A DNA stretch of 64,000 nucleotides from a virus (IMGVR_UViG_3300031555_010392:1-64000), one strand, 5' to 3'. Positions 18,717 through 60,510 are shown, counted from the first letter of the stretch. Notes: generated by a model from the sequence alone, not told the origin. Translations and numbers: made by a program.

Positions 18717-18745
18717 ATTATATCACATATTAGTTATTTTGTAAA
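18717..18745 (-). promoter_or_regulatory. sigma70-type promoter (TTTACA-17-TGaTATAAT) for gene 17665..18681; 27-bp core identical to the integrase promoter
   Basis: minus-strand reading TTTACAAAATAACTAATATGTGATATAAT; identical 27-mer at 56413-56439. Confidence 0.55.
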
Positions 18746-18754
18746 TGCTCTTTT

Positions 18755-19147
18755 TTAAATTTTACTTATGTTTGGAGTAAAACAATAATAACCATTAATA
18801 GGACAACTGTGACGATGGGGACAATCAGAATCGTTAGAACAGTATTCACAAGGGGAAGCATTTCTGTCAGCGAGGTGAATGGCAAGTTGCTTCATGAGAT
18901 CATAAGCGTTCTGCAGGCGAAGATTGTCTCGTTCAAAAGCGAGTGCTGCCGCACGAGTTTCCATATAGCTGGAATGCTCAAGGCGGAGCTGTTCTTGCAA
19001 TTTTTCAATCTCGTCTGCCGCAAGTTTTTCAAGGTTATCGCACAATCCCTTGTGGTATTTAAGTTGACAATCATCACAGCTCATTTCCTGATGACAATGC
19101 CTGAGGCAAGCAACTACATCGACATCAACATTAATATTTTCTTCCAT
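18755..19147 (-). CDS. hypothetical Cys/His-rich protein
   Basis: AAGGAG RBS 7 nt upstream of MEENINV; multiple CxxC/HxxC. Confidence 0.45.
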   Translation of the reverse strand: MEENINVDVDVVACLRHCHQEMSCDDCQLKYHKGLCDNLEKLAADEIEKLQEQLRLEHSSYMETRAAALAFERDNLRLQNAYDLMKQLAIHLADRNASPCEYCSNDSDCPHRHSCPINGYYCFTPNISKI

Positions 19148-19157
19148 AGCATGCTCC

Positions 19158-19487
19158 TTATTCAAGTTTTCGCAATGGATTATCCATGTTGCCCTCAGAA
19201 AATGAAACCTGGTCTCCAATTTGCAAAACGGCAAAAACAGAAATGGGAACCCGATAATCCATTAGGAAAGGGTGGCTGAAATTCTCTTTGAAGTACTCAA
19301 CAGTTACAATGAAATACTTGGGATTTTTGATTTGAAAAGGTTTGGAATCTTTAGACGCCCATTGCCAATAAGATGGCTGGATTCTTTTGTCAACAACTGT
19401 TCCAACCATTTCACCGTTCTTGGAAAGACCGACCGTTGGCAGGATAAACATACAGAACAATAAAGCCAAACTAACAATTCTCTTCAT
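19158..19487 (-). CDS. hypothetical secreted protein (N-terminal signal peptide)
   Basis: MKRIVSLALLFCMFILPTVGLS hydrophobic leader. Confidence 0.45.
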   Translation of the reverse strand: MKRIVSLALLFCMFILPTVGLSKNGEMVGTVVDKRIQPSYWQWASKDSKPFQIKNPKYFIVTVEYFKENFSHPFLMDYRVPISVFAVLQIGDQVSFSEGNMDNPLRKLE

Positions 19488-19495
19488 GCATTACC

Positions 19496-19771
19496 TCAAA
19501 GCATTTCATCATGCTGATCATTTTCTTCTTCGTGAAGAAGCGAATAAAGCGGTGGGCGGTGCTTTCCTTCTTTGTATCCACAAACGGGACACTCGCGTTC
19601 TGCTTTACGGGGTGGGATCTGAGCTGAATGAATAATGGGAAGTTCCATCAAACGCTTCTTACACATATTGATAAGTCTGCGTTCTGGTTCCAAAGGTCTT
19701 GACATGATAAGCTGATCCAGCTCTCTCAGGGCGTCTGTTCGGTTGATGAAGGTAAGCGGTTCATTATACAT
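19496..19771 (-). CDS. hypothetical protein with CPVCG zinc-ribbon
   Basis: GGAGG RBS; small basic protein. Confidence 0.45.
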   Translation of the reverse strand: MYNEPLTFINRTDALRELDQLIMSRPLEPERRLINMCKKRLMELPIIHSAQIPPRKAERECPVCGYKEGKHRPPLYSLLHEEENDQHDEML

Positions 19772-20500
19772 TTATACGCCTCCATTTACACTATAAGCAC
19801 GAGCACGTTTTTCCATCTGTTCTCTTTCAAGCTTTGTCCAGTTGATCCAGCCATAAATACAATTGGCCGTCCAGCCAACATACATGGCAACCATAGACCA
19901 GTTCCCGGCAACCCACCACAGCTTGATGCAAAGCACATCAATGATCAGCCACCACAGCCACTGCTCACGATAGCGGCGAACCATGAGGATTTGTGCGAAA
20001 ATAGCCATGACATTGGTAGCAGCGTCTGTGTAAGCCTGCGCAGAACCAATAAGAGTGAGAATATGACCCATGGCGATTGTAGCAATGACGGTGCCAATGA
20101 TAGACAAGAGCCACTGAACAGGTGTAAAGACCAGAGCAGAAACGTCCTGAGTTCCATCCTCGTTGGTTTCCATGTTAGACTTCCAGACGAAGATGCCCCA
20201 AATCATGGTAACAAAGTACCAGAGGTTTTCAATGACTTCACCATAAAAGCGATTCTGCCATGCGAGAACCAGATAGGTGATCGTCTGTGCAAAGCCGATG
20301 AAATAGAAAGCCAGCTTGCCTTTGGCGCAGAGCACAACAGAAATGACGCCAGCAATACCGGCAATGATATTCAAAGGAGAATCAGGAACGATACAAAAAA
20401 CAACGATCTGCAAAGCGACCATTGACCACAAAAAAATCTTTTCAAAAGCGCTGTAACCCGTCCAGAAGGTACGGAGAAACCAAGACGAAATAGCCTTCAT
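19772..20500 (-). CDS. pnuC: nicotinamide riboside transporter PnuC-like membrane protein
   Basis: ~240 aa, 7-8 TM, Trp-rich loops, translationally coupled (ATGA) to NadR gene upstream. Confidence 0.65.
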   Translation of the reverse strand: MKAISSWFLRTFWTGYSAFEKIFLWSMVALQIVVFCIVPDSPLNIIAGIAGVISVVLCAKGKLAFYFIGFAQTITYLVLAWQNRFYGEVIENLWYFVTMIWGIFVWKSNMETNEDGTQDVSALVFTPVQWLLSIIGTVIATIAMGHILTLIGSAQAYTDAATNVMAIFAQILMVRRYREQWLWWLIIDVLCIKLWWVAGNWSMVAMYVGWTANCIYGWINWTKLEREQMEKRARAYSVNGGV

Positions 20501-21606
20501 CGATTCATTACCTCTTTTACATAATCAACAATAGTCATGAAGTTTTTGTAGTAATCGCCGCCATTCAAAAACACGACGCGATCCATAAGACCAGCATATT
20601 CCATATGACAAATCAGCTTATTCAGCAGCTCGTTTCTGCTGCCGATATCGGAATGATGCATGAAGCGGGTGTGATCATCTACAAAAGTATTTTTAGGAAC
20701 GAGACAGAAGATCTTATCCCATCGCGATTTCTGCGTTAACTCATCCGCCATAGCGGCTACACGCTGGTACTCTTCAGGAGTGATAGCGCAATGGGGGTCT
20801 TCGGAATACATTTGAGCATACATTTTGGTGACAAGCGAATCTGTATCAGCGAAGAATACACCATGGTTGCCAGGGCTATTGATGAGCTGTTTGTTCAAAT
20901 GATACTGGCCTTCAAGGAAAGCCATAAAATCTGCGCCGTCCAATTCCCAATCAGCAACACAGGATTCTTTCATATAATCCCTTGCCCATTCATAAGAACA
21001 GGGGGCATTGAAATACTTGCCAAGATCTTGAACAAGAGTGCTTTTGCCTTCTGAAGCTGTACCAGTGATTAGGATATTATGACTGAACACTCTGCGGAAA
21101 GGAGCGGCAATCTGATCCCAATGCTTAATAGGATTCTGACGGATCATGGTAGCGCAAATGGGATTAGTGGCTTTGCGATCTACAAGAATGACGTTCTCAT
21201 CCCACATGTCTTTCAGATCGCGAGCATAGTTTTCATCGCCAACATACCAGCAGCGGTCAAAGCCCGTAGCAGCCATATACCAAATGTTCTCAAACTCGTC
21301 CATCCAAACAGGCCAACCATTGGGATACTCTGCAATACCAAGTCTTGAATCATTAATAGAGTAAACGGCTACTTTGTCATCATCTGCAAAGAATTCGCGG
21401 ACATAACGATAGCGCTTGGCATGGGGCATAAGGGGTTCGCCTTTATCACCATCATAACCACAGACGATGACCAGGCAACCTCCCTCATTTTCTTTTTTGG
21501 CCCTCATGATCAGATCCAAATGCCCCTGATGGAGTGGGGCAAAGGAGCCAAAGACAATTCCCACTTTTCCTTCAAGGGGCTTCTGATAAGCATGAAAAGA
21601 AGTCAT
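20497..21606 (-). CDS. nadR: NadR-like bifunctional NMN adenylyltransferase / ribosylnicotinamide kinase
   Basis: FAPLHQGH (HxGH nucleotidyltransferase motif) and ITGTASEGKST Walker A of the kinase domain; start re-called to MTSFHAY (21606) with GGAGGT RBS. Confidence 0.8.
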   Translation of the reverse strand: MTSFHAYQKPLEGKVGIVFGSFAPLHQGHLDLIMRAKKENEGGCLVIVCGYDGDKGEPLMPHAKRYRYVREFFADDDKVAVYSINDSRLGIAEYPNGWPVWMDEFENIWYMAATGFDRCWYVGDENYARDLKDMWDENVILVDRKATNPICATMIRQNPIKHWDQIAAPFRRVFSHNILITGTASEGKSTLVQDLGKYFNAPCSYEWARDYMKESCVADWELDGADFMAFLEGQYHLNKQLINSPGNHGVFFADTDSLVTKMYAQMYSEDPHCAITPEEYQRVAAMADELTQKSRWDKIFCLVPKNTFVDDHTRFMHHSDIGSRNELLNKLICHMEYAGLMDRVVFLNGGDYYKNFMTIVDYVKEVMNR

Positions 21607-21732
21607 ATAAACCTCCAATTGACAAATATGGTAAAATAAAAATTGGTACGGTGCTCCGCGATGGGAGAATGGGCCTTCATAGATCATCTTGGGTAGCTAC
21701 TGCCTTAGACGACTATGAAAGGAGTGATGCAT

Positions 21733-22436: not shown

Positions 22437-22517
22437 TGGGGATAATGGGACTTGAACCCATACGCCGTTTGGCACCAGATCCTAAGTCTGGCGCGTCTGC
22501 CATTCCGCCATATCCCC
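22437..22517 (-). tRNA. tRNA-Leu(TAG): tRNA-Leu (anticodon TAG), type II with long variable arm
   Basis: 7-bp acceptor GGGGATA/TATCCCC, anticodon arm CCAGA-CTTAGGA-TCTGG, variable hairpin GCC-AAAC-GGC, T-arm ATGGG-TTCAAGT-CCCAT. Confidence 0.75.
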
Positions 22518-22528
22518 TTAAGAAAAAG

Positions 22529-22603
22529 TCGAGGTGGTGGGATTCGAACCCACGCTCTCCACATCCCAAATGTGGCGGGATAGCCAAACTTCCCTACACC
22601 TCG
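22529..22603 (-). tRNA. tRNA-Pro(TGG): tRNA-Pro (anticodon TGG)
   Basis: acceptor CGAGGTG/CACCTCG, anticodon arm CCACA-TTTGGGA-TGTGG, T-arm GTGGG-TTCGAAT-CCCAC. Confidence 0.75.
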
Positions 22604-22608
22604 ATAAA

Positions 22609-22766
22609 TAGCGATGGTGGGATTCGAACCCACGATGGCGCCTATGGCGCGAGAATTATTCAGTAAGACACCTTACAACTTAGCACCTTGGCCTTGAGCG
22701 CAGTTCTGCTACTACCCTTACTGAGATCGCGACTCTTCTCTGCTTCGTCCACTTACATACATCGCC
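22609..22766 (-). other. tRNA-like element: perfect T-arm + acceptor 3' strand at 22609-22640 pairing with GGCGATG at 22760-22766; ~158 nt, not a canonical tRNA
   Basis: GTGGGTTCGAATCCCAC T-arm identical to neighbouring tRNAs; no recognisable D or anticodon arm between; GCGCC-ATA-GGCGC hairpin before T-arm. Confidence 0.25.
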
Positions 22767-22956
22767 GATGCCCGTACTCTTACAACCGGCGGCTTAGGCA
22801 GAAGAAAGTGCTCTGTGAAGTAGATTCTTCTGCTTTATGAGCCACCCAGGCATGGTATAGAGCTTTTGTTTATCGGTACTCACAGGTACTCTAACCACCG
22901 TGTTTTCATTTCGCTTCAGCATTTACGCATTGGCAAGGAAAAACATAAACCTCTGG

Positions 22957-23028
22957 GCGCGGGAGATGGATTTGAACCATCGATCTTCAGCTCATGAGGC
23001 TGACGAGATACCACTTCTCTATCCCGCA
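22957..23028 (-). tRNA. tRNA-Met(CAT): tRNA-Met (anticodon CAT), CCA encoded
   Basis: anticodon arm TCAGC-CTCATGA-GCTGA, T-arm GATGG-TTCAAAT-CCATC, 3' ...TCCCGCG-C-CCA; 1:72 is T:G. Confidence 0.65.
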
Positions 23029-23203
23029 ATGTGGTGGCTCTACGGGCGAGGCCGTGCATGACCTCTATATGAGAGATTTCATCAGGCTATCTTCTTGGCG
23101 TTTCTATCAACGTCTATTAATGCACGCCAGTTGCGATCTGGCTGTGGCCAATATTTTTACCTGACTACTTGCGCACATATACTGCACTACCCATAGAGCG
23201 TGG

Positions 23204-23276
23204 TGGGACTGAGGGGAGTCGAACCCCTGGCACCCTGATTAAAAGTCAGGTGCTCTGCCAACTGAGCTACAATCCC
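23204..23276 (-). tRNA. tRNA-Lys(TTT): tRNA-Lys (anticodon TTT), CCA encoded
   Basis: GGGATTG TAGCTCAGTTGGCAGAGC ... CCTGA-CTTTTAA-TCAGG ... GGTTCGACTCC. Confidence 0.8.
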
Positions 23277-23353
23277 ATGTTGTCTCGGATTACGCGCCGA
23301 GTCGCGAGGTGCTGCGTGATAAGGAGCGTCGCAATTATGTGCCTTTCGGCTGG

Positions 23354-23435
23354 TGCGGCTGGTGGGATTCGAACCCACAATCCCATAGGGCGGGAGATTT
23401 TAAGTCTCCTGCATATGCCGTTCTGCCACAACCGC
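23354..23435 (-). tRNA. tRNA-Leu(TAA): tRNA-Leu (anticodon TAA), type II, CCA encoded
   Basis: anticodon arm GGAGA-CTTAAAA-TCTCC, long variable arm, T-arm GTGGG-TTCGAAT-CCCAC, A73. Confidence 0.7.
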
Positions 23436-23441
23436 ATGTAA

Positions 23442-23514
23442 TACCACGGGTGGGATTCGAACCCACAAACGCCTGATTTTGAGTCAGGATGATATGCCAA
23501 TTCTCTACCGTGGC
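23442..23514 (-). tRNA. tRNA with anticodon CAA (Leu codon UUG) but short type-I variable arm; identity uncertain
   Basis: acceptor GCCACGG/CCGTGGT (G1:U72), anticodon arm CCTGA-CTCAAAA-TCAGG, 5-nt variable CGTTT, T-arm GTGGG-TTCGAAT-CCCAC, A73. Confidence 0.5.
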
Positions 23515-23520
23515 ACGATT

Positions 23521-23550
23521 GTGGCTTCCTTTCGGTAACGACGAGCCACG
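23521..23550 (-). other. inverted repeat GTGGCT...AGCCAC hairpin just downstream of the SPFH gene (possible terminator/processing site)
   Basis: gtggcttcctttcggtaacgacgagccac; no U-tract. Confidence 0.25.
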
Positions 23551-23564
23551 CGCCGGTAAAATCA

Positions 23565-24479
23565 TTACTTCACTTCATCTTCAATATCAATACCGTCAAC
23601 AGTGATCAATGAACTTCCGCCAGAAACCTTGGGCAGTTCACCGTTCCATTGATCGTACTTGATTTTCTCAATCAACTCGCTCGTGAGAGAAGAGGCAATC
23701 TTCTTATTGGCTTCAGCCTCAGCCTCTGCCGCAATCAAGAGTGCCTCAGCTTCGGCTTCTGCGGTAATAATAGCCTGATCTGCCTTAATGCTAGCTACAT
23801 TCTTATCTTTTTCAGCCTGAATACGGGCAGTTTCGGCTTCAATACCCGCCAACTCCTGTTCCTGCTGAGCATTAACCTTCTTCTGGATGGCAGTAGCGGT
23901 CTCTTCATCCACAGTGATTTCCGTAAAGTTGACAGTATCGATCACGATACCATAAGCATCAAAGCGATTACGAAGGTGAGTGTCCAACTCTGCGTTAATC
24001 TCAGTACGTTTGTCGCCAAAGATATCAGTTACAGGATACTTGGCTGTGACTTCCTGTGTCCATGCCTTAACTTTGGGCTTAATAAAATCGTTCTTAACTT
24101 CGACGCCGGACTTACCCTTAAAGCGAATGAACGTTTCAGTAATGCGCTCGCGATCAAAATAATAAGAGAATTCCAAACTAACACGCACAGACTTACCATC
24201 TGAAGTGGGCACGGTGAAAGACTCATCCTTGGGGGAATCACCCTCGTTAGCAGCAGTCAGATAAGACTGCTCAACACCAATAGAGTAAGTAGTAACCGAT
24301 TTCATGGGAGAAACCACATGGAAACCCTGGTCCACAACTTCATCGCCGACACCGTTGCGCATATTGTAGACCACGCCAACATAACCGGCAGGGATGCGTT
24401 CCGTACAGCCAAGAACCACGATAAAAGCGATAATAATTACAATAGCAAACAAAAATGCACCAAGCTTACCTTTTGTCAT
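23565..24479 (-). CDS. SPFH/band-7 (prohibitin/stomatin/HflK-like) membrane protein
   Basis: N-terminal TM anchor, SPFH core (GYVGVVYNMRNG...FHVVSPM...), long C-terminal coiled coil rich in AEAEAE. Confidence 0.8.
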   Translation of the reverse strand: MTKGKLGAFLFAIVIIIAFIVVLGCTERIPAGYVGVVYNMRNGVGDEVVDQGFHVVSPMKSVTTYSIGVEQSYLTAANEGDSPKDESFTVPTSDGKSVRVSLEFSYYFDRERITETFIRFKGKSGVEVKNDFIKPKVKAWTQEVTAKYPVTDIFGDKRTEINAELDTHLRNRFDAYGIVIDTVNFTEITVDEETATAIQKKVNAQQEQELAGIEAETARIQAEKDKNVASIKADQAIITAEAEAEALLIAAEAEAEANKKIASSLTSELIEKIKYDQWNGELPKVSGGSSLITVDGIDIEDEVK

Positions 24480-25122: not shown

Positions 25123-25770
25123 TTAAGCAATTGAACGATAATCTTTTGTATGATAGGGTAGACCATACTTTTTGCACCATTTCCGTACAGTGTTATCTAT
25201 GACACCGTAGCGTCGAGCAAGTAACGTGAAATTGCCATGGTTTTCAATAAGAAGCTGGCTAAGTTCTTCTTTTGTCGGCCAATCAACTTTCTTTTTGCCA
25301 ACATGCGCACAGTGGCTGCACCTTTCTGCTAAACGAGTTATTTCCGCACCGCAATCTTTACAGTAATAAAAGTGTTTAAAATGATGAGACTTATTATTTC
25401 TTCCAGCATAAGTTCTTGTTTGCGAGTGACAATTAGGACACAACCATCGGAGATTGTCTAAAGTGTTGTTCTTATTATTTCCATCTTTATGGTCGAGCTG
25501 GAGAACGAGAGGTCTTCCATTCCATTCACCTTTATGACCACAAATTGCACAGACATACTCAACGTTTTCCAACTCACGGAAGCGTCTTTTTATTGCATTT
25601 ACAGAAACGCCGCTCATTTCTGTAAAAATTTCTTCGTCCGCATAAACCTTATGGCTTTTGTTTTGATAAAGAGGTGGTTTAATACCGTATTCTTTAAGTC
25701 GCTTTTTAACGACAGCGTAACTGCCCCCTTTATTTGACTTATAACCAAGATTGTTAATTAATTCTGCCAT
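25123..25770 (-). CDS. HNH homing endonuclease embedded in the tRNA array
   Basis: DHKDGNNKNNTLDNLRWLCPNCH HNH motif plus additional CxxC/HxxC pairs. Confidence 0.75.
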   Translation of the reverse strand: MAELINNLGYKSNKGGSYAVVKKRLKEYGIKPPLYQNKSHKVYADEEIFTEMSGVSVNAIKRRFRELENVEYVCAICGHKGEWNGRPLVLQLDHKDGNNKNNTLDNLRWLCPNCHSQTRTYAGRNNKSHHFKHFYYCKDCGAEITRLAERCSHCAHVGKKKVDWPTKEELSQLLIENHGNFTLLARRYGVIDNTVRKWCKKYGLPYHTKDYRSIA

Positions 25771-28412: not shown

Positions 28413-28883
28413 TTACAAAACCTGATAGAAATACTGGAGATCAACCCAGCCTTTATCTTTGATATAGCCCCAACCGTTTACGATCCTTGCTACGGTAATC
28501 TGCTCGTTGGTCTGAACCCAACCAACGAATTTGCCTTCAGGTGTTTTGCGGAGCCTTACGCGTCCGCCAGAGGTGTTGACATATTTTGCAGAGTCCCTTG
28601 TTTCAGAAAGATAATCTGCACTGCACCAGACAGTTCCGGTTTCGCCGCCGTACACTTCAATCCAATTGCCATTGACATTGCCGGTAGGGTTAACGCTTTC
28701 TCCCCTGAAAAACCGAGCTTCTATTGCTGCGGTCTTGGAGGGCTCTGCTCGTCCATTCAGCTCAGTAGCTGTTACATACAGCTGACTACCCAGGGCGGTA
28801 TTTACTGCGAAAATGGTAATTAGTGATATTATAAGTTTGAAAGAAGAGCAAATAAAATTAGTGGCGTTTTTCATAACGTCCAT
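28413..28883 (-). CDS. membrane-anchored/secreted protein with two SH3b-like domains
   Basis: N-terminal hydrophobic anchor; repeats NGNWIEVYGGETG...YL and GWGYIKDKGWVDLQYF typical of bacterial SH3. Confidence 0.5.
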   Translation of the reverse strand: MDVMKNATNFICSSFKLIISLITIFAVNTALGSQLYVTATELNGRAEPSKTAAIEARFFRGESVNPTGNVNGNWIEVYGGETGTVWCSADYLSETRDSAKYVNTSGGRVRLRKTPEGKFVGWVQTNEQITVARIVNGWGYIKDKGWVDLQYFYQVL

Positions 28884-29055
28884 CTCCTTTGGTTGAGTAG
28901 TAGTCGCAGGACTCGGATAAGTCCTGCGGTACTATGGTGCTATCAAACTTTTTAGGATTAAAGCGATATGGGCATTTAGGCGTTTTGCATTCAAGGTTGT
29001 TGCAATACTCGGTAATTCGATCCGATCTGGATCTTGGTAGCGATTTCGCTTTCAT
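28858..29055 (-). CDS. hypothetical small Cys-rich protein
   Basis: AAGGAG RBS; CNNLECKTPKC. Confidence 0.4.
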   Translation of the reverse strand: MKAKSLPRSRSDRITEYCNNLECKTPKCPYRFNPKKFDSTIVPQDLSESCDYYSTKGDGRYEKRH

Positions 29056-29104
29056 GGTTTAGCTCCTTGCTACGATATTATAATATCACTAATAAATGAT
29101 CTTG

Positions 29105-29560
29105 TCAACACTTTTCTTCGAAAATTTCAAACTTTTTTTGAGAGTCGATCCCGCCGAAATATACCCAGTGTTTTGTCTCCATATTGACCTCCAAGTGGAT
29201 GGGCATGAGCAGATGAGCATAATTCAAAATGAGATGATTCTGCAGATCAGAAAGAGAGAAAACATGGTCTTCACACTTGGTTTTCATCAGTTCACCATCA
29301 TCGCTGAAGGAAGTACTATAGGAACGCATGTGGAACATAACCCTTCCCATGCGGTACAGATCAACAATAACGTCTTCCAACTTGCTGAAAACAAGATGGA
29401 TGATGTCATCCGTCCCATCTTTATAAAGGATATTTTTAATATTGGCTAAATGAGAATGGGCATCAGATTCATGCAAGGATGCATATGCGGCGCCAAGTGA
29501 AGTAGAGGCATGCTTTTTACCATCGGGAGTAATTGTGAGAAACTTAGAAACGTAATGCAT
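29105..29560 (-). CDS. hypothetical protein (151 aa)
   Basis: GGAGG RBS upstream. Confidence 0.45.
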   Translation of the reverse strand: MHYVSKFLTITPDGKKHASTSLGAAYASLHESDAHSHLANIKNILYKDGTDDIIHLVFSKLEDVIVDLYRMGRVMFHMRSYSTSFSDDGELMKTKCEDHVFSLSDLQNHLILNYAHLLMPIHLEVNMETKHWVYFGGIDSQKKFEIFEEKC

Positions 29561-37208: not shown

Positions 37209-37652
37209 TCAGCCTCCATTTGCAATATCCTGAAAATCGGGCGCAATAGGTTCATCAGTAAGAATGGAGATATACTCCTCCAGAATTTCATCAATATCGT
37301 CCTGTGTAAGCGACAGCTCCTCACGACCAAGATTCCAAGGATAGGAGGGCTGATAGATAAGGTAGGTTTCGCCATCAAAATCCGACGTAGCAGTGAACCA
37401 GATACCCTCACCCTCATGAATAGCTTCAACAAGAAGATCCGTAACGCCATAGGAGAAACACTCCTCAAGTGCTTCAAAATAATCCTTATGGGTGGGAGCA
37501 ACGATTCCATCTTTTTCAAAAGCTTTAAGGAAGCGATTATGGATCATGGGGGCTTTTTGGAACAAATTGAGCAGCCGCTCAAAAGAGGTATCTTCTGCAA
37601 GAGTAGAAGTACAGACGCCATAGCCGTAGTCATGCCAAGTCTTATAGCTCAT
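37209..37652 (-). CDS. hypothetical acidic protein (147 aa)
   Basis: ORF in array. Confidence 0.4.
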   Translation of the reverse strand: MSYKTWHDYGYGVCTSTLAEDTSFERLLNLFQKAPMIHNRFLKAFEKDGIVAPTHKDYFEALEECFSYGVTDLLVEAIHEGEGIWFTATSDFDGETYLIYQPSYPWNLGREELSLTQDDIDEILEEYISILTDEPIAPDFQDIANGG

Positions 37653-38032
37653 TCTGATTTCTCCGTTTCATAATCATATTTCTTAGGTGTAGTGTCACCA
37701 ATCAACCTTAGATATTTATAAATCGTAGGTCTGCTAAATGAGCACAGCCTTGCGAAATCGCTGATATTGATGGCACCTTTCTGATAAAGAGGATAATAAG
37801 AATGAAAAATTCGCGGGATATTTTCAGCGCTTGATTTAGGACGTCCAACCTTCTTCGAGGCGCGAGACGAAGAAACGATAGCAAGCTCAACGACGTCCTG
37901 TGATTTTTCCAGATCTGCAAAATATGATTCAACATTTTCGTGAACCATTGCGAGAGCAAGATGCTTTGATTCAGCTTCCACTTCAACGACAATGCTGTTT
38001 TTCTTTGTAAGTTTGATATAGTACTTGTTCAT
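37649..38032 (-). CDS. small DNA-binding protein with C-terminal HTH
   Basis: ISDFARLCSFSRPTIYKYLR helix-turn-helix; start re-called to MNKYYIK. Confidence 0.45.
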   Translation of the reverse strand: MNKYYIKLTKKNSIVVEVEAESKHLALAMVHENVESYFADLEKSQDVVELAIVSSSRASKKVGRPKSSAENIPRIFHSYYPLYQKGAINISDFARLCSFSRPTIYKYLRLIGDTTPKKYDYETEKSE

Positions 38033-46594: not shown

Positions 46595-48475
46595 TCAACC
46601 GCGGCTTACCAATTCCAGAACATTCTTGCTCCAGGCATAGTTCTGGACTCTGGAAGAAGAATCGCAAGCATGGCGGAGACGATACATATAGTCCGTATCC
46701 ACATCGGTCCACGCATCCTCAATGGAATCGACAATAAACGTTTCGCCAGCAAACTGGAACATGTAGGAAGTCACTTCACCGCTCATGCTCTCAGCGAGAT
46801 TGGGAATAACGCGAACCACATCGCCGATCTTAAAGGTACTGCCAGATCCATGGAGAAGCTGATCGCCCTTGTCGTTCTGAATATCGCGTTCCTGCATGTA
46901 GGCAACGATCTCGGGATATTCGTTGTAAAGAGCGAAATCGTTCCAAGTGCATTCCAGCGCTTCCTTGACCGTATGGGTTTTGCAGTACTTGACAAGGTTA
47001 TCGACAAACTGAAGGGTGGCGATGAGCGTGCTGTACTTAAGGGTGCCACGGAAAAGACGGAACTCGATGGTGTTGCGGTTGGTGAGATTGAGAGCGAAGT
47101 AGCGGTCATCGTGAGAATAACAGCGGGAACGGGCGATCTTCTGGATGGTCTGCTGTTCAGAATCATCGGCGCTGACGCTGATATTCATCTTCTTGCACCA
47201 GCGGAGCTGGTTGTAATCGCGGCGGCTGAACTTGACCATGGTATCCCAGAAGCGTTCCATGATCAGAGCGATCTTGGCGATGGTAGCTTCCTTAGCATCG
47301 GGGGTGGAGCCAAGACAGGTGCGGTTGACATGGACATGCAGACCACAGGTGCCAGCCTTGTGAGAGGTGAACTTGTGCTCAAGAGAGGTTTCGCAGATCT
47401 TCTCCCACGGGAATTCCTTCATGTGGTAATTCAGGGTGCAGGGATGAGTGACGATCTCAAGGCCATCATCCAGACTGCCATCACACTTGGTGTAGAGAAG
47501 ATTTTCATTGCCGCGGACAATGTCCTTGGAACAGGCAGTCGCATCATCGCCGTGGTCAATTTCGTTTTCAACTCCCATGTAAACGAAATCCGTGCCATCA
47601 GTGAACGAATCATCAGAAGTGGAGTGGAAAATGGGAGCAGGCTTATAGGAATAATTGTGAATGCGGCCAGCGCGATCATCCCAGCAGGAAGAGCAGTAAT
47701 ATTCATCCTCGCCTTCATCGTAATAACAGTCATCTACATGGAGCACATTTCCGCACTCGTGGCAGCGGCGATAGGACTGTCCGCAATCATTGCAAAGGGT
47801 ATGGCCGTTATCATTGTTGAAACGGAGACGATCATAGCTGAAATACTCGCCGCACTCCTCGCACCTGGCATAATTACTCAAGCAGGAATCACAAACGGTG
47901 AAATCCGTATTCGTCCATCCATGCTGACCATGAACAAGGGAGCCTTCGCCGTTCAGAATGAAAGAACCGCAATCGTGACAGGTTTCAATGTTTTCATAGC
48001 ATTCGCTGCAGATCCTGGTGCCGGTCTTATCCATGTAGAAGTGGCGTCCGTCGTGATAAGCACCGCAGTTATCACAGAAGAAACCTTCGCACTCTACGTC
48101 CAGATCTTCATAGGAGCATTCACCGGAAACTTTCATGCTGACCAGACGACGATCAAAATCGCTGGCGGAATCATCGCATTCACCGACGATGGACTTGTTG
48201 AAATCGGTTTCGTAAGTCCATTCCCATTTGACATCGATTGCGGAATAGGAGCGCTTGAGGATCTCGCGGGTGAGTTCCAGAGCTTCGGAGAAATTGGTGT
48301 CAAAACTGTCGAACATCGGGACCAGCTTATCGAAAGGCTCCTCGCCTTCCTTGGCGACACGGGTGTACAGACCGCCATTCTCAACGCACTTATACACGAT
48401 GTAAGGCTTCATCTGCATGGTGGGATTGCGCTTGGTATAAGTGGTGGTGGCAACCTGATAGAAATGGTACGACAT
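46595..48475 (-). CDS. zinc-ribbon-repeat protein fused to a GCS2/amidoligase (glutamine-synthetase-like carboxylate-amine ligase) domain
   Basis: central block of at least six CxxC pairs (CDNCG, CSEC, CHDCG, CDSC, CEECG, CNDCG, CHECG, CSSC); C-terminal domain with VYMGVENEI...GLEIVTHP...CGLHVHVN signature of amidoligase/GCS2 enzymes. Confidence 0.7.
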   Translation of the reverse strand: MSYHFYQVATTTYTKRNPTMQMKPYIVYKCVENGGLYTRVAKEGEEPFDKLVPMFDSFDTNFSEALELTREILKRSYSAIDVKWEWTYETDFNKSIVGECDDSASDFDRRLVSMKVSGECSYEDLDVECEGFFCDNCGAYHDGRHFYMDKTGTRICSECYENIETCHDCGSFILNGEGSLVHGQHGWTNTDFTVCDSCLSNYARCEECGEYFSYDRLRFNNDNGHTLCNDCGQSYRRCHECGNVLHVDDCYYDEGEDEYYCSSCWDDRAGRIHNYSYKPAPIFHSTSDDSFTDGTDFVYMGVENEIDHGDDATACSKDIVRGNENLLYTKCDGSLDDGLEIVTHPCTLNYHMKEFPWEKICETSLEHKFTSHKAGTCGLHVHVNRTCLGSTPDAKEATIAKIALIMERFWDTMVKFSRRDYNQLRWCKKMNISVSADDSEQQTIQKIARSRCYSHDDRYFALNLTNRNTIEFRLFRGTLKYSTLIATLQFVDNLVKYCKTHTVKEALECTWNDFALYNEYPEIVAYMQERDIQNDKGDQLLHGSGSTFKIGDVVRVIPNLAESMSGEVTSYMFQFAGETFIVDSIEDAWTDVDTDYMYRLRHACDSSSRVQNYAWSKNVLELVSRG

Positions 48476-48497: not shown

Positions 48498-48534
48498 ACT
48501 TTATTAGTTATTTAATAAGATTGAAAAATGGGTA
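48498..48534 (-). promoter_or_regulatory. conserved AT-rich promoter-associated element (CCCATTTTTCAA-N11-AACTAATAAAG) upstream of amidoligase gene
   Basis: shares TTATTAAATAACTAATAAAG with copies at 60479-60510 and 53326-53347. Confidence 0.35.
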
Positions 48535-48545
48535 CAAAAAAGAGA

Positions 48546-52527: not shown

Positions 52528-53061
52528 TCAGTGAGTAGCATTGACAGCGGAAACAGGGAAAAGATCCATGGGATCAGGGACAGTGGTGGTATGTACAGGC
52601 TTGGAAGAATGGAGAATTCCCGCTTTGATCAGGAAGCGTGCGGCTTTGCGATAGGTTTCCTTATTCTGCTTGATCTCATCATTGAACTGCTGGAGGTTGG
52701 CCAGAGATTCCCGATACTGACGCTTGGCCTCAGCAACCTGAGCTTTGGCGGCTGCGGTTTCCTGTTCAAGCTGTTTGGCCTGACGGATGATGGCTGCCTG
52801 CTTGGCATAGATTTCCTGCGCTTCCTTGATGCGCTTTTCCCGCGTGATGGAGATACGAACCTGTTCCTTCTCCTTCTGGGCCTTGAAACGAGCTTCACGA
52901 TACTTTGCGGTCATTTCCGGCGGCTGCTTACCGATGTGATTGACCACGGTCTGATAGTTGCAGCCGAGAGCTTTGGCGATATCAGAATTCTGATAACCAT
53001 ATTCACGAAGGAGTTCCATCTGGGACTTGACAGACTTGGTGACGCGGACACGCTTAGACAT
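52528..53061 (-). CDS. DNA-binding protein, N-terminal HTH + coiled coil (candidate regulator)
   Basis: NSDIAKALGCNYQTVVNHIGK HTH; AAAAGGAG RBS; promoter-like element upstream. Confidence 0.5.
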   Translation of the reverse strand: MSKRVRVTKSVKSQMELLREYGYQNSDIAKALGCNYQTVVNHIGKQPPEMTAKYREARFKAQKEKEQVRISITREKRIKEAQEIYAKQAAIIRQAKQLEQETAAAKAQVAEAKRQYRESLANLQQFNDEIKQNKETYRKAARFLIKAGILHSSKPVHTTTVPDPMDLFPVSAVNATH

Positions 53062-53076: not shown

Positions 53077-53116
53077 TCAATATTAGTTGTTTTGTAAGGC
53101 TTGAAAATGGGCATAA
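53077..53116 (-). promoter_or_regulatory. conserved promoter-associated element (CCCATTTTCAA-N12-AACTAATA) upstream of HTH gene
   Basis: related to element at 48498-48534. Confidence 0.35.
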
Positions 53117-53124
53117 AAATTCCA

Positions 53125-53310
53125 TCAACTGAGGGCGAACAAGATGAATTCGTTCAGTTCACGGTACTCTTGGGTATACAGTTTCCTGCATTTTTCCCGG
53201 TTGATCTCGTCATAGTGACGAAGACCGATATCGCCGTAGACATTCCATCCACCTTTGTAAAGATTACGTTCCATCTTCCAGATGATGTTCTTCTTGCCAT
53301 GGGCGGTCAT
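53125..53310 (-). CDS. hypothetical protein (61 aa)
   Basis: AAAGGAGGAG RBS. Confidence 0.4.
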   Translation of the reverse strand: MTAHGKKNIIWKMERNLYKGGWNVYGDIGLRHYDEINREKCRKLYTQEYRELNEFILFALS

Positions 53311-53416
53311 TGCGTCTCCTCCTTTCTTATAACATAACTAATAAACGTTGTCAACAATAATTTTTATTTTACGCTGACAACTCCCATAATGGGCGGATGG
53401 ACTGGGTAGGAATGGA

Positions 53417-55632: not shown

Positions 55633-55676
55633 AAAAAAATATCACGGAATCCGTCAAAAACCGTGATATTTTTTTT
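55633..55676. terminator. bidirectional rho-independent terminator (A7-hairpin-T8)
   Basis: perfect 15-bp inverted repeat AAAAAAATATCACGG / CCGTGATATTTTTTT separated by 13 nt. Confidence 0.5.
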
Positions 55677-55779
55677 GATCCATGGGGGACGGGTTTTCAT
55701 AGGAAAATCAAGGCTTCCAGGGCCCACCGCCGCCAAGTTCGACCTTCTCATCTCTAGGCCTCCAACCGGCCTTTTCCGA

Positions 55780-56400
55780 CTATTTTCTCCTAAATTTCCG
55801 CCCTCCTACCTCACCACCCCTCGTTCCATTCCACCTCCATTTTTCTTCGGCAAAATCTTCAATCAATCTTCAACCCTAATCCCATCTCCACCCATCCCCT
55901 CATCACCCTCACAATCGCCCCACAACCCCATTCTCACCCCTTCACACACCATACCCTTATCCACCCCAACCCCCAACTGCACGCCCCTTAAAACCCCTTT
56001 ACAGGCCCAAATAAGCCCATAATAGTTATTTAATAACCAACCACCACTCTTAACCCTTTCAATCCCACACCAAACCTAACCCCTCATAAATCGCTCTATA
56101 ACCCCTTAATCAACCTCTCTCCCAACCTACCCTAAGCCCACTAACTCCACCCCAAACAAATGCCTAAAACACCCCTTAAAAGTCGAAATAACCCCATACA
56201 TTTCCCACCACTTAATCCGTCAAAAATCCAAACAAAATAAGCACTTCCACCCCGAAAGGACTCGAAAGTGCTTTAATTTATCTATAAAACTCCACTTAAA
56301 CTACCAATATCTTATTCACCAACCCAATCTGTCCACATTCACCATTCATGCCATTAGTAAAATCAGCTCCCAAAAACCCTCACATTTATTTTTCTAAAAC
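55780..56400 (+). repeat. ~620-nt non-coding region almost devoid of G on the plus strand (C/A/T-rich), with scattered CCCCTTAA(A) and CCCTAA repeats
   Basis: about 25 G in 620 nt; ACCCCTTAA x3, CCCTAA x3, CCACCCCAA x2; the only ORF here (55663..56022) is a Pro-rich composition artefact. Confidence 0.5.
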
Positions 56401-56412: not shown

Positions 56413-56441
56413 TTTACAAAATAACTAATATGTGATATACT
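56413..56441 (+). promoter_or_regulatory. sigma70-type promoter for integrase (TTTACA-17-TGaTATACT)
   Basis: 27-bp core TTTACAAAATAACTAATATGTGATATA identical to minus-strand promoter at 18717-18745. Confidence 0.55.
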
Positions 56442-56558
56442 AATACTACCGGATGGAGCAGCCAAGAGCATGCTCCTGATTATATTTCACTCATATCACT
56501 CGCATCTCACACCAGCCCATCACAAACTAATACCATCACACAGAAAGAGGGATATAGC

Positions 56559-57473
56559 ATGTCTGCATCCACAAATGTTACCTCTATCTTTTCTCACCCC
56601 AATTTTCCCCCTAATCCCACATCCGTCTCCCGCAAAATCTCTGGTCACATGACCAAGACAGTGCACCCAATCAAGTCTATCTCTCAGATCCAGGCACTTC
56701 ACCACAATCTGCTCACCAAAGCATCTACAGCTAAAACTCCCAACAAAGCTCTTCTTGCATATCGTAATTGGTTATTCTTTGCACTGGGTATCAACCTGGG
56801 ATTCAGGGGCGGAGATATCACTGAGCTTACCTGGGGAGATCTTCTCACTTATAACCCTCATACAGATACCTACGACATCCGAACTGATGAAAATAACTTC
56901 ATCCATGCAGAGAAGACAGGAAAAGCTACCTACATCATTCTGAATGACGAAGCCAAAGAATCTATCAAATTTTATCTCATAGCCACCAGACCATTAGGCC
57001 TAATCCCAAATCTTTCTTCACCCGTATTTGCCAGCAATAAATCTTCTGGTACCAAGGAAGCAAAAGTAACTGGTCATATTGACTGTGACAACATTGGCAG
57101 GATCATCAAAAAGGCAGCCAAAGAAGTTGGTATCACTCAGAATATCTGCACTCATTCCATGCGTAAGACCTTTGGCTATCACTACTATAAGAATACTGGA
57201 GATCTTATCACTCTGCAAAAGATCTTTGGTCATAGTACTCCTGCTATCACTCTCGCTTACATTGGTATTGAGATCGAAGAGTTAACAGCAGCCTATGGCA
57301 ATAAACCTGATACCTCTATTCCTGATCTCTATGCTTACACCTCAAATCTCACTAACAATCCTATACCTATCAACACAACTTCACCCACTGCAAAGCTCAA
57401 AGTGATCAAAAGTACTGTTACTCCTAATGCCATTCACACCTACAGTCCATACAGATATTCTAATGCATTATGA
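56559..57473 (+). CDS. int: tyrosine recombinase / phage integrase
   Basis: conserved R (GFRGGD), HSMRKTFGYH (HxxR), GHSTPAITLAYIG with catalytic Tyr; AGAGGG RBS; S/T/P/N-rich low-complexity N-terminus. Confidence 0.8.
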   Translation: MSASTNVTSIFSHPNFPPNPTSVSRKISGHMTKTVHPIKSISQIQALHHNLLTKASTAKTPNKALLAYRNWLFFALGINLGFRGGDITELTWGDLLTYNPHTDTYDIRTDENNFIHAEKTGKATYIILNDEAKESIKFYLIATRPLGLIPNLSSPVFASNKSSGTKEAKVTGHIDCDNIGRIIKKAAKEVGITQNICTHSMRKTFGYHYYKNTGDLITLQKIFGHSTPAITLAYIGIEIEELTAAYGNKPDTSIPDLYAYTSNLTNNPIPINTTSPTAKLKVIKSTVTPNAIHTYSPYRYSNAL

Positions 57474-57771: not shown

Positions 57772-57828
57772 AATAAAATATTATACTAATGTCACAATAT
57801 ATTGTGAAAGAAGGTAATAATCATCAAA

Positions 57829-58554
57829 TTGGCGATCAACACCAACTTTTTTCCATGGGTAGGAGGGAAACAAGCTTATGGTTCTAAGCTGGAATTATTC
57901 TTAGCTGTTTATCTGCGATTTTGTGTGAATGAGATGGGTGTCTGCACAGTCTCTTATTCTGAACTGGCGGAGATCTTAGGGCTCTCTCTTAATGGGGGCA
58001 AGGCTGCACATAATGCGAGAGAAAAAATCAGTAACGTTATCAAAGGACTGGTAACGAGGGGAAAAGAGGATTTTCCTAACGACTTCATATGCTTTGGGGT
58101 GCCTAATAAAAAAGATGAGGACATCCGGATAAATGATGCATTCAAGATTCCTGTCAAGAGCATGAAGCGAGAACAGATACCTCCTTTTGTTGTGGTGGAG
58201 CTTGATGATTTTTTTAAGATCGTTTCAGCTGCAAAGAATGCAAGTATCAAGCCTGATGAATTATTCGCTCTTTATGTTTTCCTGAAGGGATGGATGCGTC
58301 CTGTTGCTTTTGATGAGGGGAAGGATAAGTCTTTGGGGTGCTGGTTATGCCGTGAGCAGATCACAACCTCGCTCCATATCTCAGTCCCTACTTATATGAA
58401 GTATCGTAAGATCCTTGAAGAGAATGAGCTTATCTTTTTTAAACAGGGACAAGCTCAGATCAGCCCTGCACTCTTTTCGACCACAAATAATCCAGCTATA
58501 TGGACGGCAATTGAAGACGCCATTTTAGCGGAAGACAATGAGGAGGTATCATGA
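57829..58554 (+). CDS. hypothetical DNA-binding protein (winged-helix-like CTVSYSELAEILGLS), start uncertain (TTG)
   Basis: HTH-like segment typical of replication-initiator/regulator N-domains; weak. Confidence 0.4.
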   Translation: MAINTNFFPWVGGKQAYGSKLELFLAVYLRFCVNEMGVCTVSYSELAEILGLSLNGGKAAHNAREKISNVIKGLVTRGKEDFPNDFICFGVPNKKDEDIRINDAFKIPVKSMKREQIPPFVVVELDDFFKIVSAAKNASIKPDELFALYVFLKGWMRPVAFDEGKDKSLGCWLCREQITTSLHISVPTYMKYRKILEENELIFFKQGQAQISPALFSTTNNPAIWTAIEDAILAEDNEEVS

Positions 58555-58856
58555 GCAGTATTTCCAAAACCAAAACCATCCCCTTAGACCAGGACTTTGA
58601 GGAGATACTTATTAGTGCTCTTAGATATGCGCTGGGACGCAACAGTTATATTGTTAAAATGACAGCAGAATACATTTCCAAATTCATCCCGGATTTGTCT
58701 AGTCAGCCGCTCCTCGTTATGCAACGAGATTTGCGCAATGAGCTTTATCAACCAGATAGTCGCTGGGCTTTTTCGATGGTGGATATTCAGACTTGGTTAG
58801 AGTTGCTCAGAAAAACAGAAGAAGAGTTGGATAAGAGAGGGTATTTTGTTGGATAG
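58551..58856 (+). CDS. hypothetical protein (101 aa)
   Basis: GAGGAGG RBS; ATGA coupling. Confidence 0.45.
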   Translation: MSSISKTKTIPLDQDFEEILISALRYALGRNSYIVKMTAEYISKFIPDLSSQPLLVMQRDLRNELYQPDSRWAFSMVDIQTWLELLRKTEEELDKRGYFVG

Positions 58857-59274
58857 AGATGATTTGTTAAATAAAGTTCGGAATTGTACGCCTTATTATG
58901 GATGGGAAAGTAAATATCCAGAACTATATGGAAAATATGGAATGGGCATATATGGGATTTGTGAAAGATGGCATTGGTTTGAAGAAGATAATATTACAAA
59001 TTATGCAAGAGAACATGGTTGCGCACCATTAACCGAGGCGACAAACGAAGAATTGTTATTAATGTGGGCAATGGCCGATAGCTATTGGTTGAGTGAATAT
59101 GAAAAATGGTACGACCATGCTTGCAAAAAGGCAAGAAAATTAGACGAATTCGTAGGCAAGTGTGAAAGAAAATATTTTGGATACGATGAAAATGGATATA
59201 CAGATAAAACAATAGATAGAGTTCTTAGTTCAGTATTTGAAGTTTTGGATAATAAATTGAATTTTACGAGGTGA
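58846..59274 (+). CDS. hypothetical protein (142 aa), TTG start
   Basis: GAGAGGG RBS. Confidence 0.4.
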   Translation: MLDRDDLLNKVRNCTPYYGWESKYPELYGKYGMGIYGICERWHWFEEDNITNYAREHGCAPLTEATNEELLLMWAMADSYWLSEYEKWYDHACKKARKLDEFVGKCERKYFGYDENGYTDKTIDRVLSSVFEVLDNKLNFTR

Positions 59275-59462
59275 TCTTATAAAAGCCCTAACAAAAGAAA
59301 AGCTAATCAAAATCATAAAGCAGTATGAGCACGATCTCATCTTTGACGACATGGACGATTTTCAAAAAATTTTTGATCGCTATGGAGATGAGTATTTTGT
59401 GAATAGAGACACCGGTGAACTGGAGCTGTACAAAAAGAACGAATCATTTAAGGAGGATAGGC

Positions 59463-59723
59463 ATGGGGAGAATCATTAAAGAATTTGAAACAGAGTACAA
59501 CGTTGGCGATGTTGTAGTGTACGAAAAGAATAATATACTGTTTGTCGGAATCATTGAGGGTTATTACATCGATGACAATAATTTTTGGTTCAACATCAGG
59601 GTTAACGACAATTTTGTGCACACCTATTCAAATGGTGGCGATGTCGCTGAATGGGATATTGTAGGCGTCTTGCCCGATGAATTGGCCAAGGACTGCAAGA
59701 AAAAAATTATTCATAACTGTTAA
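59463..59723 (+). CDS. hypothetical protein (86 aa)
   Basis: AAGGAGG RBS 6 nt before ATG; ORF-track GTG extension rejected. Confidence 0.45.
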   Translation: MGRIIKEFETEYNVGDVVVYEKNNILFVGIIEGYYIDDNNFWFNIRVNDNFVHTYSNGGDVAEWDIVGVLPDELAKDCKKKIIHNC

Positions 59724-59735
59724 GGAGGGATCTAT

Positions 59736-60467
59736 TTGATCTACATCACAGGAGATACCCACCGCGATTTTTATCGTATCGCTATGCATTGCCATCAGTA
59801 TGAAACCACAAAGGATGATCTGATGATCGTTCTTGGCGACAATGGCATCAATCTTCTTTCAAGAGATAGCGACACTATGCTCAAAGAGCAGCTTGAAAAA
59901 CTGCCCATCACCTTTATGCTGATCCGCGGGAACCACGACCGTCGTCCGGATGAGAGCGAGTACGAGCGCAAGTACATCAAGGGTGATGGCTACTCCGGCA
60001 TTTTCTTGGTCGAGCCGGAATATCCGTCATTGCTCTTTGCGATTGATGGCAATGCATACCAGATTCTTGGAAAGAATGCTGTTGTCATTGGCGGCGCCTA
60101 CAGCGTAGACAAGGATTGGCGCATTCAAAATGGTCAGCCTTGGTTTGAAGACGAGCAGCTGAGCTATGAAGAGCGCAAAGAAATCTATGAAAGCCTCATA
60201 TGGGCAAAACAGCATGATATTTCTATCGAATTGTTCTTAACGCACACTTGTCCTTACAGGTATATTCCGCGGGAAATGTTCCTTGGCTATGTTGATCAAA
60301 CTAGTGTGGACGACAGGATGGAAGAGTTCTTGGATAGCGTCTGGGAGTTGTTTGGCGAAGAGAGCAAATGGTACTGCGGTCATTGGCACACAGACAAGGC
60401 GATTGATAATGTGAGATTCATGTATAACGATATCATTTGTTTGAATGACGTTTATGATATCAACTGA
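59736..60467 (+). CDS. calcineurin-like metallophosphoesterase
   Basis: GDTHRD, GDNG, RGNHD, H...H motifs; TTG start after AAGGAGGGA. Confidence 0.75.
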   Translation: MIYITGDTHRDFYRIAMHCHQYETTKDDLMIVLGDNGINLLSRDSDTMLKEQLEKLPITFMLIRGNHDRRPDESEYERKYIKGDGYSGIFLVEPEYPSLLFAIDGNAYQILGKNAVVIGGAYSVDKDWRIQNGQPWFEDEQLSYEERKEIYESLIWAKQHDISIELFLTHTCPYRYIPREMFLGYVDQTSVDDRMEEFLDSVWELFGEESKWYCGHWHTDKAIDNVRFMYNDIICLNDVYDIN

Positions 60468-60478
60468 TTTTTTATGTC

Positions 60479-60510
60479 TGTTTTCAAAGCTTATAAAATA
60501 ACTAATAAAG
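60479..60510 (+). promoter_or_regulatory. conserved promoter-associated element (TTTTCAAAGCTTATAAAATAACTAATAAAGGAG)
   Basis: 28/30 identity to minus-strand element at 48498-48534. Confidence 0.35.

Follow-up and report, generated by a model that had tools for sequence, protein, structure and literature searches.

Nine intergenic copies of a repeated element

The stretch IMGVR_UViG_3300031555_010392:1-64000, which comprises 64,000 nucleotides of viral DNA and is referred to here as the window, carries nine copies of a short AT-rich element, named S1 to S9 (Table 1). The gene content assigns the window to a large SPbeta-like phage that is uncultured, because it encodes a YorL-like polymerase, retains the yorF-to-yorL synteny, and has relatives with YonO-like and YonK genes. 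It represents about half of a contig of ~137 kb that carries the same proteins. The left 18.7 kb is the minus-strand replication operon, the products of which include a 1350-residue DNA polymerase III alpha-like enzyme, a primase, and a DnaB-like helicase with an insert. Across 97% of its length, this polymerase shares 41.8% identity with the YorL proteins of Bacillus phage SPbeta and related phages. Homologues of YorF, YorG, YorH, YorI, YorJ, and YorL in the order found in SPbeta, as well as LigB, have been identified by local tblastn, and a genome scan with the YorF alignment returned only relatives with 29–34% identity. The region from 19 to 55 kb contains 14 tRNA genes and many small minus-strand genes, and from 56.5 kb on the genes are encoded by the plus strand, including that of a tyrosine recombinase (int); this organization is not that of a small temperate phage with a terminal int gene. 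In the relatives L036–L039, the recombinases of which are 55–64% identical to that of the window, genes for a YonO-type RNA polymerase (PF05183) and for a homologue of YonK follow in the plus-strand operon.

The 27-mer TTTACAAAATAACTAATATGTGATATA occurs exactly at positions 18719-18745 of the minus strand and 56413-56439 of the plus strand, with no third match in the window at up to three mismatches; none of 100 shuffles gave any match. Together with its flanks, the 27-mer forms a 33-nucleotide repeat with 97% identity. Both copies can be parsed as a −35 hexamer TTTACA, a 17-nucleotide spacer, and an extended −10 element, TGaTATAAT at 18.7 kb and TGaTATACT at 56.4 kb, as they had been read in the original prediction, which was made from the sequence of the window and had reported the identical pair. 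The surroundings of the 27-mer are unchanged in independent metagenome contigs: six of them (L002–L007) cover the int side, with S8 identical, and L028 covers the context of S1 at 18.7 kb. Therefore, it is unlikely that the repeat is an assembly artefact.

The core shared by the nine strong sites is (A)ATAACTAATA. Searching the window for AAATAACTAATA with at most one mismatch gives eight matches, where 0.43 are expected, and seven of the eight fall at the nine sites, the exception being 18059-18070 on the plus strand. All nine sites are intergenic in a window that consists of ~17% intergenic DNA, and exact AACTAATA octamers are non-coding in seven cases out of seven. A 22-nucleotide weight matrix assigns the nine sites scores of 25–34 and the next-best position of the window a score of 14; the matrix has been trained on the nine sites themselves, which makes the site scores partly circular. 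Motif discovery across the intergenic regions, which the original prediction had proposed as a check, has been carried out as an unbiased search for 12-mers common to the segments with one mismatch tolerated, and AAATAACTAATA ranked first, above the ribosome-binding sites.

The census changes several details of the original prediction. The second subclass of elements, defined there by a TTTTCAA box, is present at the places where it had been reported, with the exception of 53326-53347, which lacks the box and had been read in the wrong orientation: the core is reversed within the minus-strand promoter TTGACA-17-TGtTATAAG of 53125..53310. The partial copy reported at 56024-56037 is a full 22-nucleotide site, S7. 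The sites S2, upstream of 17142..17549, and S3, reversed in the promoter of 28858..29055, had not been recognized previously.

Table 1 Sites of the repeated element in the window and the operon and gene discussed with them
Feature	Promoter, element or gene	22-nt site	Strand	Description
S1	promoter 18717..18745	18724-18745	-	class 1; TTTACA-(AAATAACTAATATGTGA)-TATAAT, core in spacer; heads 17665..18681 and the replication operon
S2	element 17559..17602	17559-17580	-	class 2; T-run-GTG-N4-TTTTCAA-N2-CTTATAAACTAACTATTATTGG; precedes 17142..17549
S3	promoter 29080..29108(-)	29077-29098(+)		TTGACA-AGATCATTTATTAGTGA-TATTAT with TGa; gene 28858..29055(-)
S4	element 48498..48544	48498-48519	-	class 2; upstream of amidoligase/zinc-finger gene 46595..48475
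S5	element 53077..53122	53077-53098	-	class 2; upstream of gene 52528..53061 for a 177-residue helix-turn-helix (HTH)-like/coiled-coil protein
S6	promoter 53326..53354(-)	53326-53347(+)		TTGACA-ACGTTTATTAGTTATGT-TATAAG with TGt; gene 53125..53310(-)
S7		56016-56037	-	GTTATTAAATAACTATTATGGG in a G-poor region free of open reading frames (ORFs)
S8	promoter 56413..56441	56413-56434	+	class 1; TTTACA-(AAATAACTAATATGTGA)-TATACT; 118 nt upstream of the recombinase gene
S9	element 60465..60511	60490-60511	+	class 2; abuts the Shine-Dalgarno sequence of 60518..60922
Extra exact AACTAATA octamer	56525..56532		+	in the 5' leader of the recombinase gene
Replication operon	255..18681		-	downstream of S1/S2; YorF-, YorG(Sak4)-, YorH-, YorI-, YorJ-, and YorL-like genes, ligase, exonucleases, ExoV-like helicase
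Tyrosine recombinase (int)	56559..57473		+	304 residues; Phage_integrase family, catalytic domain only

A megablast comparison of the part of the window from 40 to 60 kb with the phage collection found no near-identical DNA. Pattern scans of viral contigs gave no match to the 27-mer, and a 19-mer was found only in the contig of the relative L010 itself. The 11 matches to the 19-mer in metagenome contigs include none with TTTACA or a promoter context and have been treated as chance occurrences. Rfam models matched only tRNAs in the entire window, with none at the sites or in the ORF-free region. Two other candidate motifs have been rejected: TCACA..TGTGA palindromes together with a TGTGATATA half-site, both of which occur at chance frequency, and a ATGAAAGGGGTA-like motif, which resembles the motif preceding yonK in the relatives and the window matches of which mostly lack a consistent intergenic context.

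Promoter context of the sites and their footprints in relatives

All of the sites have been scored for promoters under one common scheme. At S1, S8, S3, and S6 the core lies inside the 17-nucleotide spacer of strong sigma-A-type extended −10 promoters with scores of 12–13, in which 10–11 of the 12 hexamer positions match and the TG is also present. The core is oriented forward at spacer positions 5–12 in S1 and S8, and is reversed at positions 9–16 in S3 (TATTAGTG) and at positions 6–13 in S6 (TATTAGTT). The occurrence of the same core on either strand and in three registers of otherwise unrelated promoters is what would be anticipated for an operator and not for a contact of RNA polymerase. 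The 65-residue gene downstream of S3 is flanked by S3 and by a weaker class-2-like copy, CTTTCAAACTTATAATATCACTAAT, which is located at 28814-28842 of the minus strand within the 5' end of ORF 28413..28883. This copy has a matrix score of 14.4 and is inverted relative to S3, at a distance of ~250 nucleotides.

The class-2 sites S2, S4, S5, and S9 are modules of ~45 nucleotides that follow the pattern T-run-RTG, N4, TTTTCAA, N1-2, CTTAyAAA, N, AACTAATAww; the copies at 48.5 and 60.5 kb have 43 nucleotides in common at 79% identity. Their cores end 11–26 nucleotides ahead of start codons. The element S2, which is located at the yorE position, ends nine nucleotides before the ATG of 17142..17549, and its core ends 13 nucleotides before it. 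The element is bracketed by an inverted repeat of 10–11 base pairs, GAGCACCGCC/GGCGGTGCTC (17552-17612), which ends right at the start codon. S7 is divergent from S8, from which it is separated by 376 nucleotides, and points toward a bidirectional terminator-like hairpin near 55640-55690. The best sigma-A reading of class 2 is TTTTCA-16-TAATAw, which is weak and usually lacks the T at −7; the sigma-A scores of the class-2 sites and S7 are 7.5–9, compared with 12–13 for the promoters at S1, S8, S3, and S6. The original prediction had taken the class-2 elements for promoters. With their weak match, they may be weak or internal promoters, or operators ahead of ribosome-binding sites.

The poor fit of class 2 to TTGACA/TATAAT, with −7 usually occupied by A, and the near invariance of TTTTCAA and T-run-RTG-N4 across the four window copies and their orthologues would also be compatible with promoters for an enzyme other than the sigma-A polymerase. 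The TTTTCAA box and the T-run would then serve as recognition elements for a phage sigma factor, an activator-dependent host enzyme, or a YonO-type RNA polymerase. At the time of the 2017 paper on YonO (PMC5467207), the promoter sequence of this enzyme was still undetermined, which has been counted in favor of this alternative. However, YonO of SPbeta transcribes only the late structural and lysis operon (PMC5467207), whereas the class-2 sites precede genes of the early cluster. Relatives have a different conserved motif, TTATGAAWAGGTGG, before the yonK-like operon; a scan of about 50 ORFs of the window revealed no sigma factor; and the class-2 core is shared with sites located in sigma-A promoter spacers. 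Recognition of class 2 by a non-sigma-A enzyme is therefore decidedly improbable. In L036 (16740-16830), L038 (11440-11520), and L039 (17930-18000), the yonK-like late operon is preceded by a terminator hairpin, a T-run, and TTATGAAWAGGTGG, an arrangement that lies outside the window and is a candidate YonO-type late promoter.

The proximity of the class-2 cores to start codons, with S9 adjoining the Shine-Dalgarno sequence, could alternatively reflect a signal in the 5' leader of the messenger RNA, such as the site of a translational repressor, an RNase site, or a small upstream ORF. S9 and S2 are readable as short ORFs (MSVFKAYKITNKGVR and MLIFKSYKLTIIGGAL, respectively, each followed by a stop codon), which overlap the downstream gene by ATGA at their ends. 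However, the core of S1, S8, S3, and S6 is in the untranscribed spacer, in two of them on the opposite strand, and the distance from the core to the Shine-Dalgarno sequence varies among relatives. The upstream-ORF reading has been rejected, because the start codon is replaced in relatives by ATA, GTA, or TTA, or is followed by an early stop. A leader signal is thus already largely refuted by the orientation data and the relatives, and is the most improbable explanation of the repeat.

Relatives of the window retain the element at several sites. In L010, the YorF-like protein of which is 87% identical to that of the window, S1 is kept with one change, and S2 is kept with the bracketing inverted repeat; the latter (4560-4610) is preserved while the enclosed element varies. 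L027, with a 338-residue protein that is 57% identical, has TTTACAACTTAACTCATTTGTGATATACT at the position of S1. The footprints of S5 and S6 have been compared in L029, L033, and L035, in which the 177-residue protein is 86, 81, and 49% identical, respectively. In all three, the −35, the −10, the TG, and the half of the S6 spacer that contains the core (TAwTAGTTATGT) are kept, whereas the first five bases of the spacer and the upstream flank are variable. S5 is conserved in L029 and L035, where the T-run, CCCATTTyCAA, and CACTAwTAA are retained, and its distance to the Shine-Dalgarno sequence is shifted by insertions and deletions among the relatives. L041, with a recombinase 86% identical to that of the window, has kept the S9 element, including ATAACTAATAAAG, and has a weaker orthologue of S7. 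In L036, L038, L039, and L042 a strong promoter precedes the recombinase gene, and the spacers differ. These comparisons indicate that the element is conserved in a narrow lineage and is not universal.

Parallel with SPBRE and the candidate binding proteins

The arrangement resembles that of SPBRE of phage SPbeta, a repeat that was predicted in silico and then shown to be the binding site of the master repressor MrpR (YopR) by chromatin affinity purification sequencing (ChAP-seq), electrophoretic mobility shift assays, and reporter fusions, with about 10 MrpR peaks (PMC10516654). In the upstream regions taken from NC_001884, scored for promoters identically to those of the window, the SPBRE element is (T)AGACAAATACAAAWAATATGTATATAAT. 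It lies within the 17-nucleotide spacer at yorE, yonP, yorZ, and yosX; at or before the −35 hexamer at aimR, yonT, and the first yonX copy; and between the −10 hexamer and the ribosome-binding site, abutting the latter, at yopV, yopM, and the second yonX copy.

Both the element of the window and SPBRE are repeated AT-rich sequences of about 15–20 base pairs confined to the intergenic regions of the early cluster of a large SPbeta-type phage. Both are placed in the 17-nucleotide spacers of sigma-A promoters or beside Shine-Dalgarno sequences, with the class-2 part of the match being weaker. The copies also occupy corresponding positions. SPBRE is found at yorE, the head of the yorE-F-G-H-I-J-K-L operon, and S1 and S2, upstream of the yorF-like gene, head the syntenic replication operon; SPBRE is found at yonP, in an operon with yonO, and S8 heads the recombinase-to-YonO operon beside the ORF-free G-poor region. 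The gene 17665..18681, which the original prediction had considered to be distant and linked to lysogeny, thus instead heads the operon for DNA replication, at the yorE position of SPbeta. The copy numbers are similar, with nine sites in the 64 kb of the window and about 10 MrpR peaks in SPbeta. By contrast, the core sequences differ: ATAACTAATA in the window and AATATGTAT with a flanking ATACA/TGTAT dyad in SPbeta. Furthermore, two of the nine window copies are reversed, unlike those of SPBRE, and the class-2 copies carry the additional conserved TTTTCAA/T-run module without an obvious upstream promoter.

The binding of one repressor to several copies of a short site over early promoters is known from CI of phage lambda at OR and OL and from CI of phage TP901-1 at OR, OL, and OD. 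The window is similar to these systems in having a divergent promoter region, S7/S8, beside a regulatory or recombination gene. However, its copies are distributed over more than 40 kb at many promoters, unlike the one or two clustered switch regions of those systems, and its site lacks clear dyad symmetry. Large lytic phages such as those of the T4 type contain promoter-early stem-loop (PeSL) repeats in plastic regions, which are modules located between small early genes. The promoter-like intergenic modules of ~45–50 nucleotides between small early genes of the window are similar to PeSL. Such modules may favor recombination or conversion, which would fit the identity of S1 and S8. However, apart from the inverted repeat around S2, the window modules have no stem-loop terminator, the core also occurs reversed in unrelated promoters, and the window belongs to a phage from a temperate family with a proven operator repeat.

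A related possibility is that promoter cassettes were spread by duplication or gene conversion without any dedicated regulator, and that the core is an AT-rich spacer or −10 segment that sets promoter strength. S1 and S8 are identical over 27–33 nucleotides in the window, whereas their orthologues in relatives differ from each other, which suggests a recent conversion. The class-2 copies share the whole ~45-nucleotide module, their core overlaps a possible −10 hexamer, TAATAw, and the core has been lost from the int promoter of L041. However, the core is present in both orientations and three registers of otherwise unrelated strong promoters. It is also the conserved portion of the S6 spacer across diverged relatives, whereas the spacer sequence of sigma-A promoters is normally unconstrained, and the homologous phage family has a proven operator at the same places. 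The spread of cassettes without a regulator is therefore unlikely.

Intergenic enrichment, independence from the promoter register, footprints in relatives, and the match to SPBRE in layout and position make it reasonably probable that the repeat is a lineage-specific SPBRE-like operator, located on or beside the early promoters of an SPbeta-like phage. The original prediction had proposed co-regulated early promoters with a common operator, and this proposal is supported by comparison, in that the repeat is the dominant intergenic motif, occurs in spacers in both orientations, recurs in relatives, and has the parallel in SPBRE. We infer from the repeat and where it is located, from its retention in relatives, and from the parallel in SPbeta that a protein binds to the element and represses transcription, and which proteins may do so. 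One phage-encoded DNA-binding protein would occupy the copies and block the sigma-A RNA polymerase of the host. Its position would be within the promoter spacer at S1, S8, S3, and S6. At S7 and the class-2 sites, the weak −10 hexamer or the nucleotides immediately preceding the ribosome-binding site would be covered. The replication operon, the operon from the recombinase to the phage RNA polymerase, and several small early genes would be silenced jointly, and the early units would be released together when the protein is removed or outcompeted.

Several observations weigh against the operator reading. The class-2 sites do not have a convincing promoter just upstream, and their own match to sigma-A promoters is weak. 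The spacer of the int promoter of L041 does not contain the core and has the palindrome ATCACAtattTGTGAT in its place. L036, L038, and L039 have no comparable repeated motif within ~10 kb on either side of int: the int-promoter spacer of each of these relatives, considered as a candidate repeat, is not repeated within that distance, and an unbiased intergenic motif search of their int regions returned only Shine-Dalgarno sequences and T-runs. The window contains no match at up to two mismatches to the SPBRE consensus ACAAAWAATATGTAT, which includes an ATACA..TGTAT dyad, and at three mismatches the matches are at chance level, with none at a site. No homologue of MrpR/YopR, YopP, YopQ, AimR, or an SPbeta HTH regulator has been detected among the window ORFs, and phmmer searches with the lysogeny and regulator proteins of SPbeta against all of them gave nothing below E = 0.1.

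Candidates for the protein that would bind to the operator are a repressor encoded elsewhere in the ~137-kb genome, the 177-residue HTH-like protein (52528..53061), and the recombinase. The original prediction had favored the HTH proteins 52528..53061 and 37649..38032; the HTH matches of these proteins are sub-threshold, and no link to the motif has emerged. The recombinase has about 60 residues ahead of its catalytic domain, which is too few for an N-terminal core-binding domain. Residues R83, K119, H199, R202, H225, and Y234 do not vary among 35 aligned homologues. A PDB sequence search with the recombinase returned ordinary Xer/integrase chains. In the large relatives, the operon that extends to a YonO-like RNA polymerase invariably starts with the recombinase gene, and homologues of ~190 residues are encoded just upstream of the terminase genes in small Firmicute phages. 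The lysogeny link that the original prediction had drawn through int is not established; int occupies the yonP position and has the short N-terminal part described above. In the recombinase leaders, L036 has a tandem repeat of 2 x about 15 nucleotides (GTCGTAACGGTGTA) and L038 one of 3 x 33 nucleotides, where the window has a GGAGCA..TGCTCC hairpin.

MrpR/YopR of SPbeta has a tyrosine-recombinase fold without the catalytic residues, whereas the recombinase of the window, the only one encoded there, keeps all six, and therefore is not a degenerate protein of the MrpR type. It has also been rejected as an MrpR orthologue, since it has no significant similarity to MrpR/YopR or YopP. It is conceivable, although quite unlikely, that the recombinase, catalytically intact and lacking a core-binding domain, itself recognizes the repeat and is both a regulator of the early promoters and an active recombinase. 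In that case it would stand halfway between a functional recombinase and MrpR, a repressor with a degenerate recombinase fold, and the inverted and identical copies S1 and S8 might additionally be its substrates for recombination.

The repeats could instead be recombination sites of the adjacent recombinase, which would invert the 37.7 kb between S1 and S8 or bring about shufflon-like rearrangements among the nine sites. A recombinase with six invariant catalytic residues is encoded 118 nucleotides downstream of S8, the 27-mers of S1 and S8 are identical and inverted relative to each other, and sites occur in both orientations. However, a single arrangement without alternative junctions is seen in six relatives and in seven independent contigs of this phage, which is a small sample assessed at the contig level. 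The sites are built as promoters directly ahead of genes, a clear dyad with a crossover spacer of 6–8 base pairs is missing from the 27-mer, and a crossover within the shared promoter would leave both downstream genes as they were before. Recombination sites are a very unlikely explanation of the repeat.

Genome surroundings and implications

The ORF-free stretch at 55600-56400, upstream of the recombinase promoter, is extremely poor in G on the plus strand, with a GC skew of −0.59 to −0.73. To its left is a GC-rich ORF-free block (54860-55560) without an Rfam match. The terminator-like hairpin toward which S7 points (55640-55690) is formed by ATATCACGG..CCGTGATAT, with an A-run on one side and a T-run on the other. 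SPbeta too has an ORF-free, strongly G-poor stretch just upstream of the yonP promoter, and the opening of the genome and the start of packaging occur within this stretch in SPbeta-like phages (bioRxiv 10.1101/2021.11.22.469490). Because packaging starts in the similarly skewed stretch of SPbeta, the G-poor ORF-free region of the window may be its pac region.

A perfect palindrome of 16 base pairs, TCACAATATATTGTGA, is located at 57792-57807, ahead of the gene 57829..58554, the product of which has a weak match to HTH_36. Together with ATCACAtattTGTGAT of L041, it may represent a second type of operator; the single copy of TCACAATATATTGTGA in the window is not statistically significant.

The 14 tRNA genes form a cluster at 22437-27581, all on the minus strand, among small ORFs and the HNH endonuclease gene 25123..25770. 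The DnaB-like replicative helicase (11682-14315) is 877 residues long. An insert with matches to terminase/intein-like PHROGs interrupts its helicase homology, which points to an intein or a mobile insertion. The window also contains two sets of auxiliary metabolic genes. One (19772-21687) encodes a nicotinamide mononucleotide transporter and a nicotinamide-nucleotide adenylyltransferase, and the other (45431-48475) encodes an amidoligase with a DksA/TraR zinc finger beside a protein whose GATase-like match is below threshold (E 0.007).

The kind of operator that is dispersed over a phage genome is already known from SPBRE, and what is new here is most likely an operator-like sequence in a distant SPbeta-like phage; no general concept is changed by the finding. 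It raises the question of which protein binds to the repeat, given that no MrpR is detectable and that a conserved active recombinase is encoded at the position of the switch. If the operator reading is correct, the layout exemplified by SPBRE, in which many scattered early promoters each carry a copy of one operator, would not be peculiar to SPbeta of Bacillus. It would be a family trait of SPbeta-like phages, including uncultured relatives derived from metagenomes, in which the operator sequence and the repressor are replaced in each lineage. The repeat would thereby provide a practical handle for annotating the early regulons of such phages and for finding their master repressor.

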